The translations under genes were made by a program, and so were the position numbers. The notes below the pieces were generated by a model. That model was not told where the DNA came from. It did no database searches and saw nothing but the letters and a program-made list of their open reading frames with translations. Below are positions 4,316 to 39,068 of a stretch of DNA of 39,640 nucleotides, piece by piece. Source of the stretch: a virus (Duplodnaviria; Heunggongvirae; Uroviricota; Caudoviricetes). Location: IMG/VR virus record IMGVR_UViG_2563366929_000005; one strand, 5' to 3'. Each line of letters opens with the position of its first letter. Within the stretch, counting starts at the first letter, position 1.

Positions 4316-4674
4316 TTCTTATTCTCCGGTGCTTTCGGCATTACTGCCCAGTGAGTGATATTGACGTTTTCAAGGTCCCCGACCTGAAATGTCCACTGCC
4401 ATTCTCCGGTTTCTTTTTGTCCCCAGGTGTACCAGAGAGAACGCCAGCCAATTAGCCAGCCTTCTCCGTTAGCATCAAATAACAGAACACTTTCATTTGC
4501 TGGCGGCAGTTCAGCTGACACTGGTATTATTTTGTTTTCCAGTGCCGCACATTTAGCTTCAAGCGCATCGAATTTACGTACCAGGTACTCAGCATTTGTT
4601 TCGTTCACTTTCAGATCTCGCGGTACACATTTCCCGCGAAGAAACCCTTCCATTTCGAAAACATTCATGCGCAT
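4312..4674 (-). CDS. YfdS-like protein with a DUF551-like C-terminus
   Basis: 120 aa. C-terminus reads NITHWAVMPKAPE. Size and position match the yfdS slot of a CPS-53-type yfdPQRS block. Confidence 0.7.
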   Translation of the reverse strand: MRMNVFEMEGFLRGKCVPRDLKVNETNAEYLVRKFDALEAKCAALENKIIPVSAELPPANESVLLFDANGEGWLIGWRSLWYTWGQKETGEWQWTFQVGDLENVNITHWAVMPKAPENKK

Positions 4675-5201
4675 TTGCGTAACTCCGATAACTCGTTAAA
4701 ACGTTCCATAAACATCCCGTAGGCATGGCCCGGTGCCAGTGGAATCACGTTGAACATCTCTGTTGCCGGGATGCCTTCCAGTACAGGCCAGAAAGAGCCA
4801 TCATCAAGCCCGAGATCGCGGCGTTCGGTTGCCAGCATGATGAGATCGGCATATTTCACAGGCGTGCTCATAACCGGGGGTAACCCGTATTTCTCACGGA
4901 TTACGGCATCTATTTTTTCTTCCATCCGTTTATAGTCAGGAAGAAGGCGTTTCAGTGGAGCGGGGATGTCCTGGCAATACGCTTCTGTTGCATCATGCAT
5001 TAACGCTTCAAAAGCAAATTCCTGCGGCACCAGCTGGCTGCAAAGCACCGCATGTTGGGCGACGCTGTAGAAGTGAGAAAGATGACCGGCAAAGCGACAG
5101 ATATTTGAAAGGGAAACCGCGATATCGTTAATAACGATGTCATCTTTATTTATCTTGTCATAATAAAAATGCTTCCCGGAAAAAGTTTTAATAAATGACA
5201 T
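4665..5201 (-). CDS. yfdR: HD-domain 5'-deoxynucleotidase (YfdR-like)
   Basis: 178 aa counted from MSFIKTF, with a GGAGA Shine-Dalgarno upstream. HD-superfamily metal motifs are present (..SVAQHAV.. and ..ALMHDATEAY..). The longer track ORF start (5228) is rejected. Confidence 0.8.
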   Translation of the reverse strand: MSFIKTFSGKHFYYDKINKDDIVINDIAVSLSNICRFAGHLSHFYSVAQHAVLCSQLVPQEFAFEALMHDATEAYCQDIPAPLKRLLPDYKRMEEKIDAVIREKYGLPPVMSTPVKYADLIMLATERRDLGLDDGSFWPVLEGIPATEMFNVIPLAPGHAYGMFMERFNELSELRKCA

Positions 5202-5328
5202 TTTGTTCTCCACGTATATGCGCTGCACCGCGCTGAATTTGGGTAAAAGGAAGCCCTCACCATCCGGTGATTATTGAGTTAATTACGTTTCCATAAATGC
5301 CCCCGCAGGGGCATTTGCAGTAATGAAA

Positions 5329-6153
5329 TCAGGCGGTGAAAGTACCAATAAAGGTTTCTACTTTGCTGTCTTTGAATTTCTCAACAAGCAGATCACGAAA
5401 TTCGTTAGCCATATCTTCCTGCACCGCTTCCAGCTGAATAATGCGCAGAACCAGTACAGGACGATCGCCAGTGATAATGCTGAGGCGTAATTTAAACGGA
5501 CGTTCTTTCAGACCTTCAAACGGAACGCATTTAAATTCAAATGCCACTGGCATAATGTCTTTGGTCTTCGCTTCGACAGATTCCATCAGGGAGCGTTTGC
5601 CGCTGAAGTCATTATCTTCAAAATCAGCGGTCTGGTTTGCTTCAATCGTGATTTTACGGATTGCCGCAGCCGCTTTTGTTGCCTGAATGGCGTCACCATT
5701 AGCATCAAAGCCCACAAGGTAGTCGGCCCAGTCTTCAATCCATTCTGCCAGTGATTTCTGGGAGTTACGCTCGCCGTTAACAGACAACAGGGCAGAGAAC
5801 GGTGCTGTCTTTTTCAGTTTGAGAGTGGCGGTGTTATCTGCGTGACCTGGTTCATCAATAGTACCCAGGTTAAGCACACTGACGGCACGCATATTATCAG
5901 CATCGATAAAGCAGCGGGTGCCTTCATCTGCAAGATCTTTAGAATAACGGGTAAAGTCATCGATGCTGGCAGTGGAAAGCGCACCACGGAAACGGAAGCG
6001 ATTTAAATTAAATTTTTCCAGATCATGAATGCGGAAATTCTCAGGCAATGCCACAGCATCGGCACCAATCTTACTGATAATTTCATTAACACCCTGAGCA
6101 GAAATAAGGGCATGGATTTGATTAATTGCGGTTGCGTCTAAGTTCTGAGACAT
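5329..6153 (-). CDS. yfdQ: YfdQ-family (DUF2303) protein
   Basis: 274-aa ORF. Size, sequence character and position between the YfdP-like and YfdR-like genes match the family. Confidence 0.8.
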
Positions 6154-6218
6154 AATAAGTCCTCACTATATTAAGATATTCAGTGATGAGATAAATAATC
6201 AGTTAATTAAGAACGATA

Positions 6219-6581
6219 TTAATGACCTGCTGCGCGGAGTTTTCCGTCAGGTTCACCGGCAAGAGTCAGTAATTGTCCCTGGTCTTCCTGCAGAATAGTC
6301 AGGCGACCACCGCGATTGACATACATCGGCGTTTCGGTGGTGTCTTCTTCAGAAATTTTCCCGCGGTTAGTCGGGCGAACATATGAGAGTTTGTGTTTGA
6401 TTTTCACACGGTTCTCATCAAACGGTTCGATTTCCAGGTTGAGCGAGACCTTACCTTTGGTTTTCGTGTTCATCACACCGGAAGCGACTTCACTGAGAAC
6501 TGCGCCGATTTTGGTTTCAAATACGCCGCCGTCCAGCTCCCCGATAAATGCCTGCACATCAGTACTGCGTTCGCTAGCCAT
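6219..6581 (-). CDS. YfdP-like early protein
   Basis: 120 aa counted from MASERSTDVQ, with a GAGGAG Shine-Dalgarno just upstream. The N-terminal 62 codons of the track ORF run through structured non-coding leader and are rejected. Confidence 0.7.
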   Translation of the reverse strand: MASERSTDVQAFIGELDGGVFETKIGAVLSEVASGVMNTKTKGKVSLNLEIEPFDENRVKIKHKLSYVRPTNRGKISEEDTTETPMYVNRGGRLTILQEDQGQLLTLAGEPDGKLRAAGH

Positions 6582-6629
6582 TTTGCTGCTCCTCATCATA
6601 TCGACCCTGCAAGGTCGGTTGGTTTCTCC

Positions 6630-6763
6630 ACAAAACAGAGAAGAACACCTGCGGTGGCAGCCGCCCGGATGGATTGGGTTATGAGCCCGTCGTCCGGTGA
6701 TGCTCTTCTCTGTTTTGTAAAAAGAGCGGTACCAGCCGGAAGCAAGTGTACAAACTGGTACCG
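6630..6763 (-). promoter_or_regulatory. Two large RNA stem-loops in the leftward-operon leader (candidate processive-antitermination or leader RNA)
   Basis: Perfect 15-bp inverted repeat ACAAAACAGAGAAGA (6630-6644) / TCTTCTCTGTTTTGT (6704-6718). Perfect 9-bp inverted repeat CGGTACCAG (6727-6735) / CTGGTACCG (6755-6763). A boxA-like CGCTCTTTTTAC (minus strand, 6717-6728) lies between them. Confidence 0.4.
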
Positions 6764-7052
6764 CCAAAGCAGTGGCTGTTGTGGTGACCGGTGCTGATCT
6801 CCGGCTTGCGGTTATTTCAGACTCTCACGGGCGTTTAATTGCCCCGCCGAACAGCTCTTTTCCGCAATAGCTGCAATGTCTTTCGCGCATCAGCCTGCGC
6901 ATTCACCACAACGCTAAGGATTCTCTCTGGTTGAAAATACTTAGCTGTTATGTGCCTGCTTTTAGCCACATCAGGCGAGGTGGACCTGGTTATTCCCCAA
7001 CAACAAGGATTTGGTTATTATGTAACCCTCCCCAACAACGATAAGGATTTAT

Positions 7053-7142
7053 ATGGATCTATGTGTAGATAAGTATGAGGAGAGGCATGTGCCGTTAAGA
7101 CAAAAGCCTCCAGTTCCTCCAAAACCACCCAAGGAAAACTGA
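7053..7142 (+). CDS. Proline-rich micro-ORF A (29 aa): MDLCVDKYEERHVPLRQKPPVPPKPPKEN
   Basis: ATG preceded by TAAGGATTTAT. The stop lies 7 nt before the 2-TM gene. It shares an H-V-P..PPxPP(K)PP core with micro-ORFs B and C. It is below the ORF-track cutoff. Confidence 0.4.
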   Translation: MDLCVDKYEERHVPLRQKPPVPPKPPKEN

Positions 7143-7149
7143 GACTAAT

Positions 7150-7644
7150 ATGACCAGAGACGATTATAAATTTTATGTTCACTACTCTTATGTATTGGAG
7201 AAGATGAATTACACGTTGTTAACTCGCATTGATAAATTAATAACGTTGATGTTAATCGTTCTCGGTTTTTCAGTTTTCGCCCCGTACAGTAATTTATTTA
7301 TTTTCGGTTTGTTTGTTGCCGTACTTTCGGTTCTTCAGTTGGTCTATCAGTTTGGCCAAGAGGCTGGAATGTCTAAAGAGCAAGCGAGGCATTACAAAAG
7401 ACTGCTGATTGAGTCTGATACCCTTCCTGAAGATCAGTTGCAAGCTAGGTATTTAAAAATCCAAGATACTGATAGTAATCCATGGAAATCACTTGAACGA
7501 GCGGCTTTCATTCGGGCCTGTATTTTTGCTGGTGTTCCAACTAAGTACGATTTAACAACCAAAGAAAAATTTATAGCTTGGTGTGCGGGAGATCTACCTC
7601 TAGAGAATGAACTAACGGATATTAATGATGACCAACAAGCATAA
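7150..7644 (+). CDS. Two-TM helical-hairpin membrane protein (SLATT-like topology), candidate superinfection-exclusion or abortive-infection effector
   Basis: 164 aa. TM1 is LITLMLIVLGFSVFA and TM2 is LFIFGLFVAVLSVLQLVY, separated by a 4-aa loop and followed by an amphipathic soluble tail. The gene is AT-rich, on the opposite strand to the early-left operon, and has its own terminator downstream. Confidence 0.7.
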   Translation: MTRDDYKFYVHYSYVLEKMNYTLLTRIDKLITLMLIVLGFSVFAPYSNLFIFGLFVAVLSVLQLVYQFGQEAGMSKEQARHYKRLLIESDTLPEDQLQARYLKIQDTDSNPWKSLERAAFIRACIFAGVPTKYDLTTKEKFIAWCAGDLPLENELTDINDDQQA

Positions 7645-7699
7645 TCCAGTTCACGGACATGTACCTCCGAAGCCGAAACCACCGAAACCGAAGAAATGA
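7625..7699 (+). CDS. Proline-rich micro-ORF B (24 aa): MMTNKHNPVHGHVPPKPKPPKPKK
   Basis: ATG preceded by CGGATATTA. It overlaps the last 20 nt of the 2-TM gene in the +1 frame. The core is HVPPKPKPPKP. Confidence 0.35.
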   Translation: MMTNKHNPVHGHVPPKPKPPKPKK

Positions 7700-7718
7700 G
7701 ACATAATAGGATTGGATA

Positions 7719-7787
7719 ATGAGTCGACCAATAGAGCCTTTTCATATTCCACCTCGTCCCAGGCCACCAGATCCAGGCCCAAAGTGA
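7719..7787 (+). CDS. Proline-rich micro-ORF C (22 aa): MSRPIEPFHIPPRPRPPDPGPK
   Basis: ATG preceded by TAGGATTGGATA (an AGGA Shine-Dalgarno with 7-nt spacing). The core is HIPPRPRPPDP. The terminator hairpin starts 25 nt downstream. Confidence 0.4.
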   Translation: MSRPIEPFHIPPRPRPPDPGPK

Positions 7788-7801
7788 GGGTTACTGATTT
7801 T

Positions 7802-7810
7802 TAAAGAGCG
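7802..7810 (-). promoter_or_regulatory. boxA-like element (CGCTCTTTA) of a candidate nutL
   Basis: The minus strand reads CGCTCTTTAAAAATCAGTAACCCTCACTTTGGGCC about 100 nt downstream of the putative pL. Compare lambda nutR, recalled as CGCTCTTAAAAATTAAGCCCTGAAGAAGGGC. The boxB-like hairpin is weak (3 bp). Confidence 0.4.
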
Positions 7811-7811
7811 A

Positions 7812-7834
7812 AGCGTCCGGTAGGGCGCTTTTTT
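7812..7834 (+). terminator. Intrinsic terminator of the plus-strand accessory mini-operon
   Basis: AGCGTCC-GGTA-GGGCGCT hairpin (one G.U pair) followed by TTTTTT. Confidence 0.65.
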
Positions 7835-7917
7835 GGTACTAACGAATCATCCTGGACTTCATATGCCCCAGGCGGCTACTTCGTGGGCGTCCTGCCTGTT
7901 CGTTATCTTTGATATAA

Positions 7918-7946
7918 AATCTAACTTAACTTAGTTTTAATGGCAA
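7918..7946 (-). promoter_or_regulatory. Putative pL promoter with an overlapping OL operator
   Basis: The minus strand reads TTGCCA-17 nt-TAGATT. The spacer contains ACTAAGTTAAGTTAGA, a 12/16 match to the OR palindrome ACTAAGTAATCTTAGT. Confidence 0.5.
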
Positions 7947-7981
7947 GAGAAAACACCAAACTTTTCTTAGTTCGGTGTTTT
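7945..7981 (-). terminator. Hairpin downstream of the repressor gene (probable cI terminator)
   Basis: AAAACACC (7950-7957) pairs with GGTGTTTT (7974-7981). On the minus strand the stem is followed by a T-rich CTCTT. Confidence 0.5.
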
Positions 7982-8000
7982 GGTTAGAGAAAAGGGGGGG

Positions 8001-8627
8001 CTAGAGTTCGTATTGAACTCCTTTGACTACACCAATGATGAGGCAATTACCATTGATCGGGATGTTGGGGTACCGGGGATTTAATGGCACTAAAAACTTT
8101 TGAGGGCCATCGATAACTAATTTTTTTACTGTGGCTTCGTTTGTTCCATCAAGTCTAGCGATGACTATTTTTCCATGCCGGGGTTCTGCATCAGGATCTA
8201 CAATCACTGTTGCGCCTTCTGGTATTGTTGGGAGGCCGTTAGGGTTAGTCATGGAGTCGCCTTTAACCTCCAATGCAAATGAGTTATCACCAATCTTTAA
8301 TGATGTATCTACCCACTTGTCTACTTCACTAAACACTTCTGCTGTCCTGCACTCAGTAAACTGCCCAGCCTGAACCCACGAGATTACAGGAACTCTGCGC
8401 ATGTTTGTGACGAGTTTGCCTTCAAACTCCGCACCATAAAGAATGTAATCTATTGACGTATTGAAGAACTTCGCTAATTTTGAAAGTGCTTCCCCACCAG
8501 GGACATTGATGTCTTTCTCCCAGTACCCCACAGCAACGTCACTTACTCCACAAAATTTACCCAATTCTTTCTGGGACGTTCTGGTAACTCTTCTCAGAGC
8601 TTTTATACGCTGACCAACCGTTTCCAT
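8001..8627 (-). CDS. cI: CI-like prophage repressor (HTH_XRE N-terminus plus S24 LexA-type autopeptidase C-terminus)
   Basis: 208 aa. The HTH is QKELGKFCGVSDVAVGYWEKD. There is an Ala-Gly cleavage region (VQAGQF), a Ser motif (GDSM) and a Lys motif (TVKKL). The gene is divergent from the cro-like gene. Confidence 0.9.
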   Translation of the reverse strand: METVGQRIKALRRVTRTSQKELGKFCGVSDVAVGYWEKDINVPGGEALSKLAKFFNTSIDYILYGAEFEGKLVTNMRRVPVISWVQAGQFTECRTAEVFSEVDKWVDTSLKIGDNSFALEVKGDSMTNPNGLPTIPEGATVIVDPDAEPRHGKIVIARLDGTNEATVKKLVIDGPQKFLVPLNPRYPNIPINGNCLIIGVVKGVQYEL

Positions 8628-8648: not shown

Positions 8649-8698
8649 ACTAAGTAATCTTAGTTTTTATTGACCTAAGATAGATTGATAATTAACAT
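8649..8698. promoter_or_regulatory. OR operator palindrome plus putative PR promoter
   Basis: A perfect 16-bp inverted repeat ACTAAG-TAAT-CTTAGT lies at 8649-8664. A candidate PR has TTGACC (8670-8675), a 17-nt spacer and TAACAT (8693-8698), upstream of cro. Confidence 0.55.
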
Positions 8699-8724
8699 CT
8701 AATAAAACTTAGTTTGGAGGGCAT

Positions 8725-8925
8725 ATGACGACTGACGATATCGAAAGCTACTTCGGCAGCATTGAGAAAGTTGCTGCTTTTTTCGGCATAACAACTGAAG
8801 CCGTTTATCAGTGGCGAAACCGTCCTGGCCAGTTAATTCCAAAAGGACGTGCAGCAGAGGCTGCATATAGAACTTGCGGACGGTTGCCATTTAAACCTGA
8901 GCTTTATGAAAAATCTAATGGATAA
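8725..8925 (+). CDS. cro: Cro-like / YdaS-family HTH regulator
   Basis: 66 aa. KVAAFFGITTEAVYQWRN is an HTH. It is the first rightward gene opposite the repressor, with a GGAGGG Shine-Dalgarno. Confidence 0.8.
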   Translation: MTTDDIESYFGSIEKVAAFFGITTEAVYQWRNRPGQLIPKGRAAEAAYRTCGRLPFKPELYEKSNG

Positions 8926-9935: not shown

Positions 9936-10884
9936 TCTTGCATGCCGTATTGGTCTGAATGAGGCAATTGTGTTGCAGCAGCTTCATTACTGGCTGAATG
10001 AAACGAATTCAGGCACTGAGCATGGCGGAATTCGCTGGGTTTATAACACGACAGAACAGTGGCTGGAGCAGTTTCCGTTCTGGTCAGAGTCCACTCTGAA
10101 ACGCACATTTGCAAGCCTGAAATCACTTGGGGTTTTGCGTCGCGAGCAACTCAATAAATCGAAGCGTGACATGACCAACTTCTACACGATCAACTATGAA
10201 AGTGAGCTTTTAGAAGAGGTCAAAGTGAACGAATCCATCAGGTCAAAATGCACTTCTCCATCGGGTCAAAGTGACCTGATGGATGGGCGCAAAATGACAC
10301 GATCCATTGGTTCAAAACGACACGCTGTCATCGGGTCAAAATGGCCCAATGATCTTACAGAGAATACAACAGAGATTACTACAGAGAATAAAACCTCTTC
10401 TCGTCCGGACGCTTCGCAACCGGACACGCAAACGGCTGAACAGGATTTTTTAACTCGCCATCCTGATGCGGTTGTATTCAGCCCTAAAAAGCGCCAGTGG
10501 GGGACGCAGGATGATTTGACCTGCGCACAGTGGCTCTGGAAAAAAATCATCGCCCTGTACGAGCATGCCGCCGAATGTGACGGCGAGGTGGTTCGTCCCA
10601 AAGAACCGAACTGGACAGCATGGGCAAACGAAATTCGCCTGATGTGTGTGCAGGATGGTCGTACTCATAAACAAATCTGCGAGATGTACAGCCGCGTCAG
10701 TCGCGATCCGTTCTGGTGCCGTAACGTGCTCAGCCCGTCGAAGCTGCGGGAAAAATGGGATGAGCTTTCCCTGCGCTTATCGCCGTCCGTCAGCACGTAC
10801 ACCGAAAAACGCGAAGACCCGTACTTCAAAGCCAGTTACGACAACGTGGACTACAGCCAGATCCCGGCAGGATTCAGGGGGTGA
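9892..10884 (+). CDS. Replication initiator (O-like) with an internal origin
   Basis: 330 aa with an N-terminal wHTH-like region. The iteron array lies inside the coding sequence, as in lambda O. Confidence 0.85.
   Translation: MSLLMTSQPIVINRDLACRIGLNEAIVLQQLHYWLNETNSGTEHGGIRWVYNTTEQWLEQFPFWSESTLKRTFASLKSLGVLRREQLNKSKRDMTNFYTINYESELLEEVKVNESIRSKCTSPSGQSDLMDGRKMTRSIGSKRHAVIGSKWPNDLTENTTEITTENKTSSRPDASQPDTQTAEQDFLTRHPDAVVFSPKKRQWGTQDDLTCAQWLWKKIIALYEHAAECDGEVVRPKEPNWTAWANEIRLMCVQDGRTHKQICEMYSRVSRDPFWCRNVLSPSKLREKWDELSLRLSPSVSTYTEKREDPYFKASYDNVDYSQIPAGFRG
10218..10343 (+). repeat. Origin iterons: six copies of GGTCAAA[AG]TG-like repeats at 23-bp periodicity
   Basis: Perfect copies start at 10218, 10241, 10264 and 10334. 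Degenerate copies start at about 10287 and 10309. Confidence 0.8.
10357..10390 (+). repeat. Three 12-bp-spaced ACAGAGAWTA repeats next to the iterons (probable unwinding or ori accessory region)
   Basis: ACAGAGAATA at 10357, ACAGAGATTA at 10369 and ACAGAGAATA at 10381. Confidence 0.5.
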
Positions 10885-11375
10885 TCATGAGTCTTTTGAA
10901 TGACGTTCAGAAATTCATTGAAGCCCATCCGGGGTGTACTTCCGGAGACATTGCGGATGCTTTTGCAGGTTACTCACGACAGCGCGTTCTGCAGTCAGCA
11001 AGCAAGTTACGTCAGAGTGGGCGTGTGGCTCACCGTTGTGAAGGGGATACACGCAGACATTTCCCGCGGCTGACTGAGATACCGCAGGAGCCGGAACCGC
11101 AACCAGTTCGTGAATCCAGACCTGTGCGCAATTTCTATGTCGGCACTAACGATCCCCGGGTGATTTTGTGCCTGACCCGCCAGGCGGAAGAACTGGAGTC
11201 CAGGGGCTTATACCGTCGTGCTGCAACGGTGTGGATGGCGGCATTCCGTGAAAGCCACTCCCAGCAAGAGCGAAACAATTTTCTTGCGCGTCGTGAGCGG
11301 TGTTTACGGAAAAGCAGCAAGCGCGCTGTATCGGGTGAAGAGTGGTATCTGTCAGGGAATTACGTGGGGGCTTAA
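10881..11375 (+). CDS. PerC/Pch-family-like transcriptional regulator (N-terminal wHTH-like region plus PerC-like C-terminus)
   Basis: 164 aa. AEELESRGLYRRAATVWMAAF...ERNNFLARRERCLRK resembles the PerC signature (LE..GLWRRAA..W....RR..C). Confidence 0.55.
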   Translation: MIMSLLNDVQKFIEAHPGCTSGDIADAFAGYSRQRVLQSASKLRQSGRVAHRCEGDTRRHFPRLTEIPQEPEPQPVRESRPVRNFYVGTNDPRVILCLTRQAEELESRGLYRRAATVWMAAFRESHSQQERNNFLARRERCLRKSSKRAVSGEEWYLSGNYVGA

Positions 11376-11701
11376 TGACGACGTTAACTCAATGCCAGCA
11401 GCAGGTGCTGGATATGCTGATTTCTTACCAGAAAGAACGTGGCTTCCCGCCAACCAATCAGGAGGTGGCTACCATGCTGGGATACCGTTCAGTGAATGCA
11501 GCGGTGGAGCATCTTCGCGCACTGGAGAAAAAAGGCGTCATCACGATAAAGCGTGGCGTGGCCCGGGGCATCACGCTTCATACCGCGGTGAAGGACGACG
11601 ACAGCGAGGTGGCCGGGATTATCCGCGCACTGCTTGCTGGTGAGGAAAACGCCAGGCTGCGTGCAGCCCACTGGTTACATGAGAGGGGGCTGAAAGTATG
11701 A
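11375..11701 (+). CDS. LexA DNA-binding-domain-only protein (no S24 peptidase domain)
   Basis: 108 aa counted from MTTLTQCQQQVLDML (TAATG overlap). It aligns by eye with E. coli LexA residues 1-70: LT..QQ.V.D.I....G.PPT..E.A..LG.RS.NAA.EHL.AL..KGVI.I..G..RGI.L. Confidence 0.8.
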   Translation: MTTLTQCQQQVLDMLISYQKERGFPPTNQEVATMLGYRSVNAAVEHLRALEKKGVITIKRGVARGITLHTAVKDDDSEVAGIIRALLAGEENARLRAAHWLHERGLKV

Positions 11702-13901: not shown

Positions 13902-13918
13902 TTTTGTGGAGAAAGTTG

Positions 13919-14299
13919 ATGCGTGATATTCAGATGGTTCTTGAACGCTGGGGGGCATGGGCTGCAAGTGGTAACACCGGGGTGGACTATTCTCCGATCG
14001 CTGCCGGATTCAAAGGACTTTTACCATCTGCCACTAAACCACGTCCGGCCTGCTGCGATGATGACGGACTTATCATTGAAAACTGTCTTGCTCGTCTGAA
14101 GCAGAAAAAACCTGAGGAGTATTCGCTTCTCATTGCTCATTATTTGTTGCGAATATCAAAAAGACAGATAGCCAGGACGAGAAAGAAAAGCGAAAAAGCA
14201 ATACGAATTGAGATGCAGATAGCCGAAGGGTTTATTGACGGATGTTTGTCTGTGCTGGGGGTAAGACTGGAGATGGACGACTGGCTGCTAAAAAAGTAA
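13919..14299 (+). CDS. Q: Late-gene antiterminator Q (QuuD/phage-82 type)
   Basis: 126 aa counted from MRDIQMVLERWGAWAA..IAAGFKGL. This closely resembles my recollection of the DLP12 QuuD N-terminus. The upstream TTG in the track ORF is rejected. Confidence 0.9.
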   Translation: MRDIQMVLERWGAWAASGNTGVDYSPIAAGFKGLLPSATKPRPACCDDDGLIIENCLARLKQKKPEEYSLLIAHYLLRISKRQIARTRKKSEKAIRIEMQIAEGFIDGCLSVLGVRLEMDDWLLKK

Positions 14300-14769: not shown

Positions 14770-14845
14770 GGCCCTTTAGCTCAGTGGTGAGAGCGAGCGA
14801 CTCATAATCGCCAGGTCGCTGGTTCAAATCCAGCAAGGGCCACCA
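14770..14845 (+). tRNA. ileZ: tRNA-Ile2 type (anticodon CAU; would read as Met without lysidine)
   Basis: The cloverleaf folds by eye: acceptor GGCCCTT/AAGGGCC, anticodon loop CTCATAA, T-loop TTCAAAT, encoded CCA. It closely resembles E. coli ileX. Confidence 0.9.
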
Positions 14846-14852
14846 TCACATA

Positions 14853-14929
14853 CCGCCATTAGCTCATCAGGATAGAGCACCAGCCTTCGAAGCTGGTTGC
14901 GCGGGGTTCGAGTCCTCGATGGCGGTCCA
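14853..14929 (+). tRNA. argN: tRNA-Arg (anticodon UCG)
   Basis: Acceptor CCGCCAT/ATGGCGG, anticodon stem CCAGC/GCTGG with loop CTTCGAA, T-arm GGGGTTCGAGTCCTC, encoded CCA. Confidence 0.85.
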
Positions 14930-14942
14930 TTATCTGTACCCT

Positions 14943-15019
14943 GCGTTGTTAGCTCAACCGGACAGAGCAATTGCCTTCTAAGCAATCGGTCACTGGTTCG
15001 AATCCAGTACAACGCGCCA
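14943..15019 (+). tRNA. argO: tRNA-Arg (anticodon UCU)
   Basis: Acceptor GCGTTGT/ACAACGC, anticodon stem ATTGC/GCAAT with loop CTTCTAA, T-arm CTGGTTCGAATCCAG, encoded CCA. Confidence 0.85.
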
Positions 15020-37007: not shown

Positions 37008-39068
37008 ATGGCAGCAGTAAAAATCTCAGGTGTGCTGAAAGATGGTGCGGGAAAACCAATACAGAACTGCACTATTCAACTGAAGGCAAAGCGTAACAGC
37101 ACCACGGTACTGGTGAACACGGTGGCCTCTGAAAATCCGGATGAAGCCGGGCGTTACAGTATGGACGTTGAGTATGGTCAGTACAGCGTCACCCTGCTGG
37201 TTGAAGGTTTTCCACCTTCACATGCCGGGACCATTACCGTCTATGAAGGTTCCAGACCAGGTACGCTGAATGATTTTCTCGGTGCCATGACGGAGGATGA
37301 TGCCCGTCCGGAGGCACTGCGCCGTTTTGAGCTGATGGTGAATGAAGTGGCACGTCATGCCGGAGCGTCATCACAGAGTGCAGCGGCGGCAAAGAAATCC
37401 GAAACGGCAGCGGCATCATCGAAGAACGCGGCGAAAACCTCAGAAACGAATGCAGCTAACAGCGCACAGGCGGCAGCGGCCTCGCAGACTGCATCGGCAA
37501 ACTCCGCGACAGCAGCCAAAAAATCAGAAACCAGCGCGAAAAATAGCGAGACAGCCACAAAGGCCAGCGAAAAAAACGCAAAATCCAGCCAGACGGCAGC
37601 GAAAACCAGTGAGACGAATGCCAAAGACAGTGAAGCCAACGCAAAGGTGAGCGAAACAGCGGCGGCGAACTCGGCGAAAGCATCGGCAGCAAGCCAGGCG
37701 GCAGCAAAAGCAAGTGAAGATGCTGCCAGAGAATACGCAAACCAGACAGCAGAGCCGTACAGATATGTTTTACAGCCGCTGCCGGATGTGTGGATACCCT
37801 TTAATGATTCGCTGGATATGATTACGGGCTATTCTCCGGGTTATAAAAAAGTGAAGATTGGTGATAATGTGGTTCAGGTTGCCAGTGATAAACAGGTTAA
37901 TTTCAGTCGCGCATCAACGGCAACATATATCAACAAATCTGGCGAACTGAAAACGGCGGAAATTAATGAGCCACGATTTGAAAAAGAAGGTTTATTGATT
38001 GAAGGTCAGCGAACCAACTACATGTTGAATTCAGCAACTCCAGCTTCTTGGGGTAAATCTGCAAATATGAATGTCGCTGAGGTTGGAACTGATAGTTTTG
38101 GTTTTACTTATGGAAAGTTTGTTTGTAATGAATCATTAATTGGGCAAAGTACAACCCTTAATATGGCAGTAGTTTCAACCTCGGGGGCTGTCGATGTATC
38201 AGGCGATAATAAGTGTGTGACGACATCGTGCAGATTTAAAACGGATTTGGAACTCCTGTTAAGGATCAGGTTTGAAGCCTTCGATGGCAGCGCTTCATCT
38301 AATCTTGGATATGCCATTGTTAATACGCGGTCTTTATTGGTTGAAATCACCGGTGTAGCTGCCGACAGGCTCACCGCACGAGTTAACAAAGATGAAGCTA
38401 CGGGCTGGATTTTTGTAGAGGCAACGATTCAAGCAAGTAAAGAAACTTACATAACCTCTGCAATACAATACGCACCAAAAAAAGGTGGTGTCGTTGAATC
38501 TGGTGACTATATTTATTTGGCCACCCCTCAGGTTGAGGATGGTTCGTGTGTATCATCTTTTATTATATCAGGAACGACGGCGGCGACGCGCGCAAGCGAT
38601 ATGGTGACAGTTCCGATTAAGAATAATCTTTATAATCTTCCTTTTACGGTTCTTTGTGAGGTACATAAGAACTGGTATAAAACGCCAAATGCAGCACCGC
38701 GTGTTTTTGACACATACCGGCATCAGGCAGATGCGGGGATCGTAATGGGGTTTGGTTCATCAGGTGGGTACGACGGTTTTCCGTATTGTGATATAGGTGG
38801 TTCAGACCGACGAATAAATGAAAATGCCGGGCTGGAAAAAATGCTTATTGGTATGCGGGTAAAGTCCGAACGGTCCACATGTGTAGTCAGTAACGGTAAG
38901 TTAAGCAGCGAAACTAAAACCAAATGGGAATATATCCGGAGTACAGCAACCATTCGCATTGGTGGACAAACTACAGCAGGATTACGCCATTTATTTGGGC
39001 ATGTGAGGAATTTTCGTCTCTGGCATAAAGAGCTAACAGATGCGCAGCTTGGGGAGGTTGTGGAGTGA
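37008..39068 (+). CDS. stf: Side tail fibre (lambda Stf-like N-terminus, Ala/Ser/Lys repeat shaft, divergent distal domain)
   Basis: From MAAVKISGVLKDGAGKPIQNCTIQLKAKRNSTT.. the sequence is close to the lambda Stf N-terminus. The shaft has SETxAxxSxxxA repeats. The distal half, from about 37750, has lower GC. Confidence 0.85.
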   Translation: MAAVKISGVLKDGAGKPIQNCTIQLKAKRNSTTVLVNTVASENPDEAGRYSMDVEYGQYSVTLLVEGFPPSHAGTITVYEGSRPGTLNDFLGAMTEDDARPEALRRFELMVNEVARHAGASSQSAAAAKKSETAAASSKNAAKTSETNAANSAQAAAASQTASANSATAAKKSETSAKNSETATKASEKNAKSSQTAAKTSETNAKDSEANAKVSETAAANSAKASAASQAAAKASEDAAREYANQTAEPYRYVLQPLPDVWIPFNDSLDMITGYSPGYKKVKIGDNVVQVASDKQVNFSRASTATYINKSGELKTAEINEPRFEKEGLLIEGQRTNYMLNSATPASWGKSANMNVAEVGTDSFGFTYGKFVCNESLIGQSTTLNMAVVSTSGAVDVSGDNKCVTTSCRFKTDLELLLRIRFEAFDGSASSNLGYAIVNTRSLLVEITGVAADRLTARVNKDEATGWIFVEATIQASKETYITSAIQYAPKKGGVVESGDYIYLATPQVEDGSCVSSFIISGTTAATRASDMVTVPIKNNLYNLPFTVLCEVHKNWYKTPNAAPRVFDTYRHQADAGIVMGFGSSGGYDGFPYCDIGGSDRRINENAGLEKMLIGMRVKSERSTCVVSNGKLSSETKTKWEYIRSTATIRIGGQTTAGLRHLFGHVRNFRLWHKELTDAQLGEVVE

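Follow-up and report, generated by a model that had tools for sequence, protein, structure and literature searches.

The DNA analysed here (the window) is a stretch of 39,640 nucleotides (nt), IMG/VR record IMGVR_UViG_2563366929_000005, which represents a lambdoid E. coli prophage of the SfV/ST64B/CPS-53 type. The interval in question contains the leftward promoter pL with its operator OL and the 5′ leader of the pL transcript, and it holds a conserved three-way-junction RNA of 67 nt (7904–7838 on the minus strand), located about 7 nt after the predicted transcription start, between pL and a boxA element. This RNA was absent from an earlier interpretation made from the letters alone, without database searches (the sequence-only reading). 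The explanation favoured here, for which the balance of probability is close to even, is that this N-less prophage antiterminates its early-left transcription independently of N by means of a leader RNA acting in cis, the effect on termination being what we infer.

The pL promoter and the three-way-junction leader RNA

Positions are those of the window throughout, with (−) and (+) denoting the strand. The promoter pL at 7946–7918 (−) consists of TTGCCA (7946–7941) and TAGATT (7923–7918) separated by a 17-nt spacer, with the predicted start near 7911–7910. Its −10 element is overlapped by the operator OL, TCTAACTTAACTTAGT (7921–7936), matching the palindrome of the right operator OR, ACTAAGTAATCTTAGT (ACTAAG-N4-CTTAGT), at 8649–8664 as well as a further site at 8693–8713 (82% over 22 nt in the repeat comparison). 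A putative pL at this place and an overlapping operator resembling the OR palindrome had both been proposed in the sequence-only reading; the coordinates are correct, and the comparative data strengthen the identification of pL. It should be pointed out that a promoter match of 9/12 is not significant alone (4 found vs 5.5 expected in shuffles). The pL/OL assignment is sound, because pL is the sole minus-strand match of at least 9/12 in the interval 6000–8000, it directly follows the terminator of the repressor gene cI (7981–7950), it overlaps an OR-like operator, and a promoter of at least 9/12 occurs at the same place in 62 of 127 distinct upstream sequences of relatives with other immunities, against 2 of 120 control segments. 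The distance from the −10 element to helix P1 of the leader RNA is 13 nt in the window and mostly 12–23 nt in the relatives, so that the leader RNA appears to constitute the very 5′ end of the pL transcript.

Concerning conservation, a sensitive BLAST comparison of the segment 7735–7912 with phage genomes placed the widest conservation not in boxA, but in the approximately 60 nt right after pL. This stretch is common to SfV, SfII, SfIV, ST64B, Yersinia YeP1-3, Pectobacterium ZF40, Pantoea AH07, SPN3UB, mEp237 and phages of Klebsiella and Citrobacter, and in each of them it lies about 120 nt past the stop of the repressor gene. The RNA (all on the minus strand) is closed by helix P1, formed by 7904–7899 paired with 7846–7841, and it comprises an invariant 22-nt core, GGCAGGACGCCCACGAAGUAGC (7896–7875), helix P2 (7872–7868 paired with 7855–7851) with a conserved loop (7867–7856), and an AUGA junction (7850–7847). 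The exact core GGCAGGACGCCCACGAAGTAGC is present in at least 120 IMG/VR contigs, with 103 distinct variants among the matches listed.

The two helices change their sequence while keeping their pairing. P1, which is ACGAA/UUCGU in the window, reads GCGAA/UUCGC, CCACC/GGUGG or GUCAUC/GAUGAC elsewhere, and P2, CCUGG/CCAGG in the window, is replaced by CCGGU/ACCGG, CCGAC/GUCGG, CUACC/GGUAG or CCCGA/UCGGG, the core, the P2 loop (GGCRUAYGAA) and the AUGA junction being unchanged across the variants. In an alignment of 56 leader sequences, pairing is retained in 95.5% of the cells, both sides have changed in 10 of the 11 variable pairs, and the covariation score amounts to 0.61, shuffles scoring 0.17 and slid partners 0.12 or less. 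A short pseudoknot between 7876–7873 and 7867–7865 is possible according to the structural model, albeit weakly supported.

A covariance model of the leader recognises the copy in the window (7907–7838) with 90 bits and an E-value of about 1e-27 and finds exactly one copy per phage; it did not match HK022 or HK639. The genome survey, in which the first 100 of 120 stretches from a 16-mer scan were tested with this model, yielded 19 true leader matches, and the 17 of them for which the organism is stated all come from Enterobacterales. The hosts cover E. coli, Enterobacter, Leclercia, Kosakonia, Phytobacter, Pseudocitrobacter, Scandinavium, Pantoea, Serratia, Yersinia and Xenorhabdus, and the leader region is found in 1505 of 5426 complete E. 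coli genomes (~28%). Among the matches listed in E. coli, no RNA or specific feature is annotated, one short match overlapping the coding sequence of a hypothetical protein. Covariance searches of 7700–7950 against Rfam 15 (in 5-kilobase (kb) and 1.4-kb searches, E-value up to 10) gave no match, a full-text literature search with the core sequence retrieved no paper, and no description of the leader RNA was found in the literature searched, King et al. 2011 (put-like RNAs) lying outside that search.

With regard to the gene context, 122 of 128 loci have an open reading frame (ORF) for a cI-type repressor immediately ahead of the leader RNA and in the same orientation. Clustering of the 4800 ORFs from these 128 loci, within 5 kb on either side, revealed no co-conserved phage protein besides this repressor, which points to a host partner. 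The genes downstream are yfdPQR in some loci and of the recE/kil type in others. Divergence starts immediately after P1, and the homology blocks stop at 7838 or 7796; there is thus no conserved expression platform, as would suit an element whose target is the polymerase and not a gene further downstream. A sigma-70 pause element of the putL kind was not evident in the leader by eye.

The boxA element, its hairpins and the absence of N

The boxA, CGCTCTTTAAAAAT, is located at 7810–7797 (−), about 30 nt past the leader RNA. The sequence-only reading had seen here a string running from boxA to a boxB, CGCTCTTTAAAAATCAGTAACCCTCACTTTGGGCC (7810–7776, minus strand), very like the nut site of lambda, and the lambda sequence that it gave was right: nutL of lambda reads CGCTCTTAAAAATTAAGCCCTGAAGAAGGGC, with CGCTCTTAAAAAT as its boxA part. 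The form common in the relatives, GCTCTTTAACAAT, is identical at 13/13 positions with the boxA of the E. coli K-12 rrnH operon, TGCTCTTTAACAAT; the boxA of the window agrees at 12/13 and differs at one position (C to A), hence its lambda nutL look, and it conforms both to the enterobacterial consensus GCUCUUUAACAA and to the boxA of lambda nut (CGCTCTTA-like). The exact string GCTCTTTAA occurs at a fixed distance after the leader RNA in 20 of 121 related loci and in 0 of 121 on the antisense control strand, 12 different contexts being represented among the boxA loci, which continue downstream in at least six unrelated ways. Judged by this conservation, the boxA downstream of pL is real and more than a product of chance. 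A second boxA-like string, TGCTCTTTAGACA at 7370–7382 (−), with 11/13 positions shared with the rrn boxA, lies within the antisense of the cargo gene described below; the window shows no excess of near-matches to the boxA 9-mer (11 found vs 7.5 expected), and this string is probably due to chance.

The arrangement common in the boxA loci is a hairpin, AAGCGCCCUACAGGACGCUU, followed by one base and then by GCTCTTTAACAATCTGG. The hairpin precedes boxA by 0–1 nt in 11 of the 12 contexts and has no homology to the boxB of rrn; in the Xenorhabdus locus L193, boxA follows the leader RNA without it. Across the whole set boxA is invariant, the loop and stem of the hairpin being variable, and the homology block common to hundreds of E. 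coli genomes stops at 7796, just past boxA. No boxC-like GU-rich element was found after boxA.

In the window this hairpin belongs to a strong intrinsic terminator of the plus strand at 7811–7836 (+), AAGCGUCC-GGUA-GGGCGCUU, with four more U behind it, or six if the two paired in the stem are included; the hairpin (7830–7811) folds with −13.6 kcal/mol on the plus strand, where it has a U.G pair that corresponds to a C.A mismatch on the minus strand. A second, weak plus-strand hairpin at 7776–7792 (+), made up of GGCCCAAAGTGAGGGTT plus ACTGATTTTT and followed by a run of T, is on the other strand just the proposed boxB. That CCC/GGG element was rejected: its stem measures 3 base pairs (bp) and its loop 7 nt, it accompanies the same cargo only (L010 and L065), it is missing from the other 10 boxA contexts, and it forms part of the terminators that serve the cargo gene on the plus strand. 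A lambda nut boxB would have a stem of 5 bp and a GNRA-like pentaloop, conserved among relatives, which is not what is seen here. The two hairpins together would, as far as their sequences indicate, end the transcription of the cargo gene before it reaches pL and cI.

Concerning N, viable relatives with the same pL leader—SfV, SfIV, mEp460_4F5, vB_EcoM-689R6 and Kati—have no N at the site, and the arrangement of pL, variable cargo and yfdPQR or recE, without N, is repeated in SfV, SfII, SfIV, ST64B, mEp460_4F5 and at least 120 viral contigs. SfII, SfV and SfIV have been described as being without cII, cIII and N (PMC3851460), and for phage LLS, the left operon of which is closest to those of ST64B and phiNP, a genome paper of 2025 reports no N homologue and considers that the phage 'may' use a put-like RNA (PMC12315714). 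No N family was matched by the left-operon ORFs of the window in Pfam or PHROGs; lambda N retrieved nothing by phmmer and tblastn from the 4800 ORFs of the 128 loci and the six-frame translation of the window, a very divergent N being possible since N proteins are diverse; and an Arg-rich heuristic did not reveal any recurrent Arg-rich small ORF downstream of the leader. The minus-strand ORF at 7434–7745 (103 amino acids), taken for a shadow in the sequence-only reading, has no PHROG match and a sub-threshold Pfam match only, and it is indeed regarded as a shadow because the overlapping plus-strand ORF at 7150–7644 matches phrog_6315 at 9e-64. The sequences therefore indicate a group of phages without N, no N gene having been lost here.

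The cargo site, the terminator tL and the prophage setting

The plus-strand ORF just mentioned is an antisense cargo (moron) gene at 7150–7644 (+), encoding a protein of 164 amino acids from phrog_6315 (function unknown), which has the look of a membrane protein, with two predicted hydrophobic segments near its N-terminus. It had no match in Pfam and PADLOC, and a role in superinfection exclusion or abortive infection would be a guess only. The cargo at this site differs among the relatives: orf33 in SfV, orf35 and orf36 in SfIV, one minus-strand gene in mEp460_4F5 and a pair of genes in 689R6. The segment that separates the pL leader from the terminator tL (6984–7837 in the window) is in fact a cargo hotspot, also in L001–L003 and many IMG/VR loci, occupied by unrelated small genes that are often antisense and have their own terminators pointing at pL; antisense terminators are found downstream of the leader RNA in 71 of 94 distinct loci. 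Antisense ORFs cover more of the first 1.2 kb than sense ORFs in 10 of 10 distinct boxA loci and in 20 of 87 loci without boxA, this being a crude measure and the loci being partly related. The window itself offers no credible sense ORF for about 1.2 kb after boxA, because the cargo gene lies antisense. The coupling of boxA to antisense cargo is in line with what has been published on boxA, namely that it protects long untranslated RNA against Rho (PMC7665894).

Beyond the cargo, the minus strand carries the intrinsic terminator tL at 6765–6719 (−), GGCGGUACCAG...CUGGUACCGC followed by UCUUUUU, located before yfdP and folding with about −21 kcal/mol; its loop, according to a wider terminator scan and direct folding, is 19 nt long. 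It is conserved in yfdP-carrying loci, where the stems covary (e.g. GCGGCGUC/GACGCCGC and GCGGCACC/GGUGCCGC), and a different strong sense terminator, GCCCGUC...GGCGGGC followed by CUUUUUU, is present in five loci with the GUCAUC-type P1. The conserved presence of tL on the sense strand implies a need for antitermination.

A second conserved structured RNA was found at 6622–6717 (−), directly after tL and upstream of yfdP, together with a hairpin at 6590–6620 just before the yfdP start. Its alignment (41 variants) contains 31 predicted pairs, with a 19-bp closing helix, a covarying CCGGA..UCCGG arm and a hairpin of variable length, and the many U.G pairs in the closing helix point to the sense strand; it had no match in Rfam. 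The tip of the CCGGA..UCCGG arm, CGGGCUCAUAACCC, is identical at 14/14 positions with the anticodon arm of the E. coli initiator tRNA (metZ). The arm loop varies in relatives (CUCAUUA, CUCAUUC), and tRNA mimicry, suggested by this identity, is uncertain. Within a block conserved in about 33 loci there is also an ORF of 44 amino acids, MAKSRHITAKYF..., with a basic C-terminus (6984–6835, minus strand), the frame of which diverges after about 24 residues in relatives, suggesting conservation at the nucleotide level and not of a coding sequence.

As for the remaining features of the prophage, the region 7760–7960 (201 nt compared) is 100% identical to E. coli AR_0013 (NZ_CP032204.1). The cI-type repressor gene at 8001–8627 (−) encodes a helix-turn-helix and an S24 peptidase domain (Pfam Peptidase_S24 at 1.6e-27 and HTH_3 at 3.5e-9; phrog_4, transcriptional repressor), and it is followed by an inverted repeat, the intrinsic cI terminator at 7950–7981 (−), whose hairpin of −15.0 kcal/mol precedes a U-rich tail (CUCUU...); 80 of 106 loci have a corresponding terminator no more than 300 nt ahead of the leader RNA. 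A P22-Cro-type gene at 8725–8925 (+) is followed by a CII/CP76-type gene, and the gene of the antiterminator Q is at 13904–14299. The first conserved early-left gene is yfdP-like (6219–6581, minus strand; phrog_204 at 1e-49), behind which yfdQ at 5329–6153 (−), with DUF2303, and yfdR at 4665–5228 (−), YfbR-like/HD, were assigned from profile matches and the annotation of relatives, more small minus-strand genes lying to the left of these three. The same early-left layout is shared by SfV, SfII, SfIV, ST64B, mEp460_4F5, vB_EcoM-689R6 and the CPS-53 remnant of K-12. On the right side, genes of tRNA-Met(CAT), tRNA-Arg(TCG) and tRNA-Arg(TCT) are found at 14770–15019 (+), just downstream of the Q gene, like in lambdoid phages of the Stx type, and the pR operon contains, between the replication genes and Q (10881–11701, plus strand), two ORFs, one PerC-like and the other encoding a LexA DNA-binding domain.

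Antitermination, its alternatives and known systems

In the favoured explanation, inactivation of the repressor would let pL fire, and the nascent 5′ RNA would fold into the three-way junction, which might modify the elongation complex either by itself or by way of a host factor, as putL of HK022 does from the same position; HK022 putL likewise starts at the start of pL (PMC9378689). In lineages with antisense cargo, boxA would additionally load NusB/S10 and the other Nus factors, as it does in rrn operons and CRISPR leaders. The polymerase modified in this way would then resist Rho over the untranslated stretch of about 1.2 kb and read through tL into yfdP, yfdQ, yfdR and the rest of the early-left operon; either RNA module would change termination. 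A broader statement, which is held more tentatively, is that the junction RNA joins HK022 put as a second class of antiterminator RNA that modifies the polymerase, without any structural relationship to it, and serves as the early antitermination device of a large N-less branch of lambdoid prophages of Enterobacterales, the rrn-type boxA carrying the polymerase in some lineages through antisense cargo and tL.

Several observations weigh against this explanation. In P1 and P2, G.U pairs are about as common as C.A mismatches, so that the transcribed strand is indicated by the promoter and not by the pairs themselves; a search of the pR operon for another leader RNA, analogous to putR, gave none with the filters off, which means that pR transcription needs another solution; and the leader RNA is unlike put in sequence or fold. 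The boxA is found in only about 17% of the leader RNA loci, the boxA-hairpin block is nearly identical among many of them—part of its conservation may thus reflect recent shared ancestry—and as a terminator the adjoining hairpin clearly suits the opposite strand better. Strong intrinsic terminators on the sense strand occur within 2.5 kb in only 36 of the 94 distinct loci, many having no obvious one, and the C>G 'rut-like' composition along the untranslated stretch is modest, Rho-dependent sites being not predictable.

The site might alternatively be an insulated cargo site behind a stabilising leader, the hairpin and boxA being just the terminator end of the moron, the boxA likeness functionless, and the junction RNA protecting the pL transcript from RNase E or 5′-end-dependent decay or tuning expression without touching termination. 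Structures at the 5′ end are known stabilisers of mRNA, the hairpin adjoining boxA is a strong terminator on the plus strand only, antisense terminators are common downstream of the leader RNA, and all boxA loci have antisense cargo. A stabiliser, however, needs a hairpin and not an invariant 22-nt core with conserved loops, such as are maintained here in five or more families of Enterobacterales, Xenorhabdus has retained boxA without the hairpin, boxA is invariant while the hairpin loop and stem vary, and the conserved sense terminator would still have to be passed; this alternative is considered unlikely. Still less probable is a junction RNA that works as a riboregulator sensing a ligand or protein, as a small self-cleaving ribozyme or as the body of a small RNA that pL would produce and that acts in trans, with no control of elongation. 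Its size and architecture (about 65 nt, three-way junction, invariant junction and loop nucleotides, possible pseudoknot) are those of small riboswitch aptamers and ribozymes, and where boxA is present, the adjoining hairpin could terminate the RNA after about 100 nt; on the other hand, neither a conserved expression platform nor a conserved downstream gene was found, no riboswitch or ribozyme of Rfam matches it, and most loci have no terminator right after the leader RNA.

The sequence-only reading had itself considered two possibilities. According to one, the site is a degenerate nutL of the lambda type with remnants of boxA and a weak boxB, N having been displaced or destroyed by the antisense cassette and the early-left operon being left defective. 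The resemblance of boxA and spacer (CGCTCTTTAAAAAT vs CGCTCTTAAAAAT) and a stem-loop at about the right distance after boxA speak for it; against it, N is at the site in no relative, phages forming viable particles included (PMC3851460), nor is it found in the 128 loci or the window, the 'boxB' stem-loop is unconserved and forms a plus-strand terminator, and in most relatives boxA has the rrn form with a conserved hairpin upstream, as in rrn, not downstream, as in nut. The loss of N is therefore rejected as scarcely credible. The other possibility, a different mechanism of antitermination, was the better of the two, although its likely agent—the structured RNA at 7904–7838—had escaped that reading.

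The early antitermination of N-less lambdoid phages such as SfV, ST64B, phiNP, LLS and those like CPS-53 thus gains concrete candidates: a covarying, unannotated RNA that occurs across many Enterobacterales genera and in some 1500 complete E. coli genomes, an rrn-type boxA carried by phages and a conserved terminator. The leader RNA and boxA are the most promising elements for explaining how terminators are passed in such phages. Should RNA polymerase be its target, the leader RNA would represent just the second class of antiterminator RNA that works independently of factors, and it would be a compact part for synthetic biology. The locus moreover exhibits a cargo hotspot next to pL that is insulated by one-direction terminators.

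Compared with nutL of lambda, the site described here shares the genomic position, about 100 nt downstream of pL, and a nearly identical boxA with its A-rich spacer; it differs in that neither a boxB of the lambda, P22 or phage 21 kind nor N is present in the phage or its relatives. Antitermination of the rrn type depends on NusB, NusE, NusA, NusG and SuhB. With the rrn leader the site has in common the boxA, identical in the relatives (GCTCTTTAACAAT) and 12/13 in the window, and a hairpin immediately upstream of it as in rrnH. Like in rrn leaders and CRISPR leaders with boxA only, boxA stands ahead of a long untranslated transcript, where it counters Rho (PMC7665894). The hairpin here, however, is not a homologue of the rrn boxB and doubles as a terminator of the opposite strand, boxC is missing, and the setting is an early phage operon, beside a second, unrelated structured RNA.

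Another close system, resembling the site in position and logic, is put of HK022 and HK639, which causes readthrough of terminators in cis and is blocked by mutations in the zinc-binding domain of the β′ subunit. A model built from putL and putR of HK022 and putL of HK639 (the latter from the annotation of the HK639 record) reached at most 5.1 bits in the window segment 6500–10000 with the filters off and found no match in seven other leader-bearing phages; Rfam holds no put family, and the annotated putL of HK639 is a homologue of put, unlike the leader RNA here. An apparent likeness to putL (CGAAC.GGC and a CAGGAUGA 'loop') was discarded, the bases lying within P1/P2 and covarying to unrelated sequences in relatives. 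HK639 (L129) has at 37910–37969, after a cII-like gene, also an annotated 'M3-like RNA', which is unrelated to the RNAs described here. The folds differ as well, put consisting of two adjacent stem-loops, whereas the leader RNA comprises two hairpins closed by a third helix. In both cases the pL transcript of an N-less lambdoid phage opens with a structured RNA about 70 nt long, which here, too, would act in cis; HK639, moreover, has as its annotated antiterminator RNA a single putL-like element in the left operon, and put, like the leader RNA, has no conserved downstream partner gene (PMC9378689).

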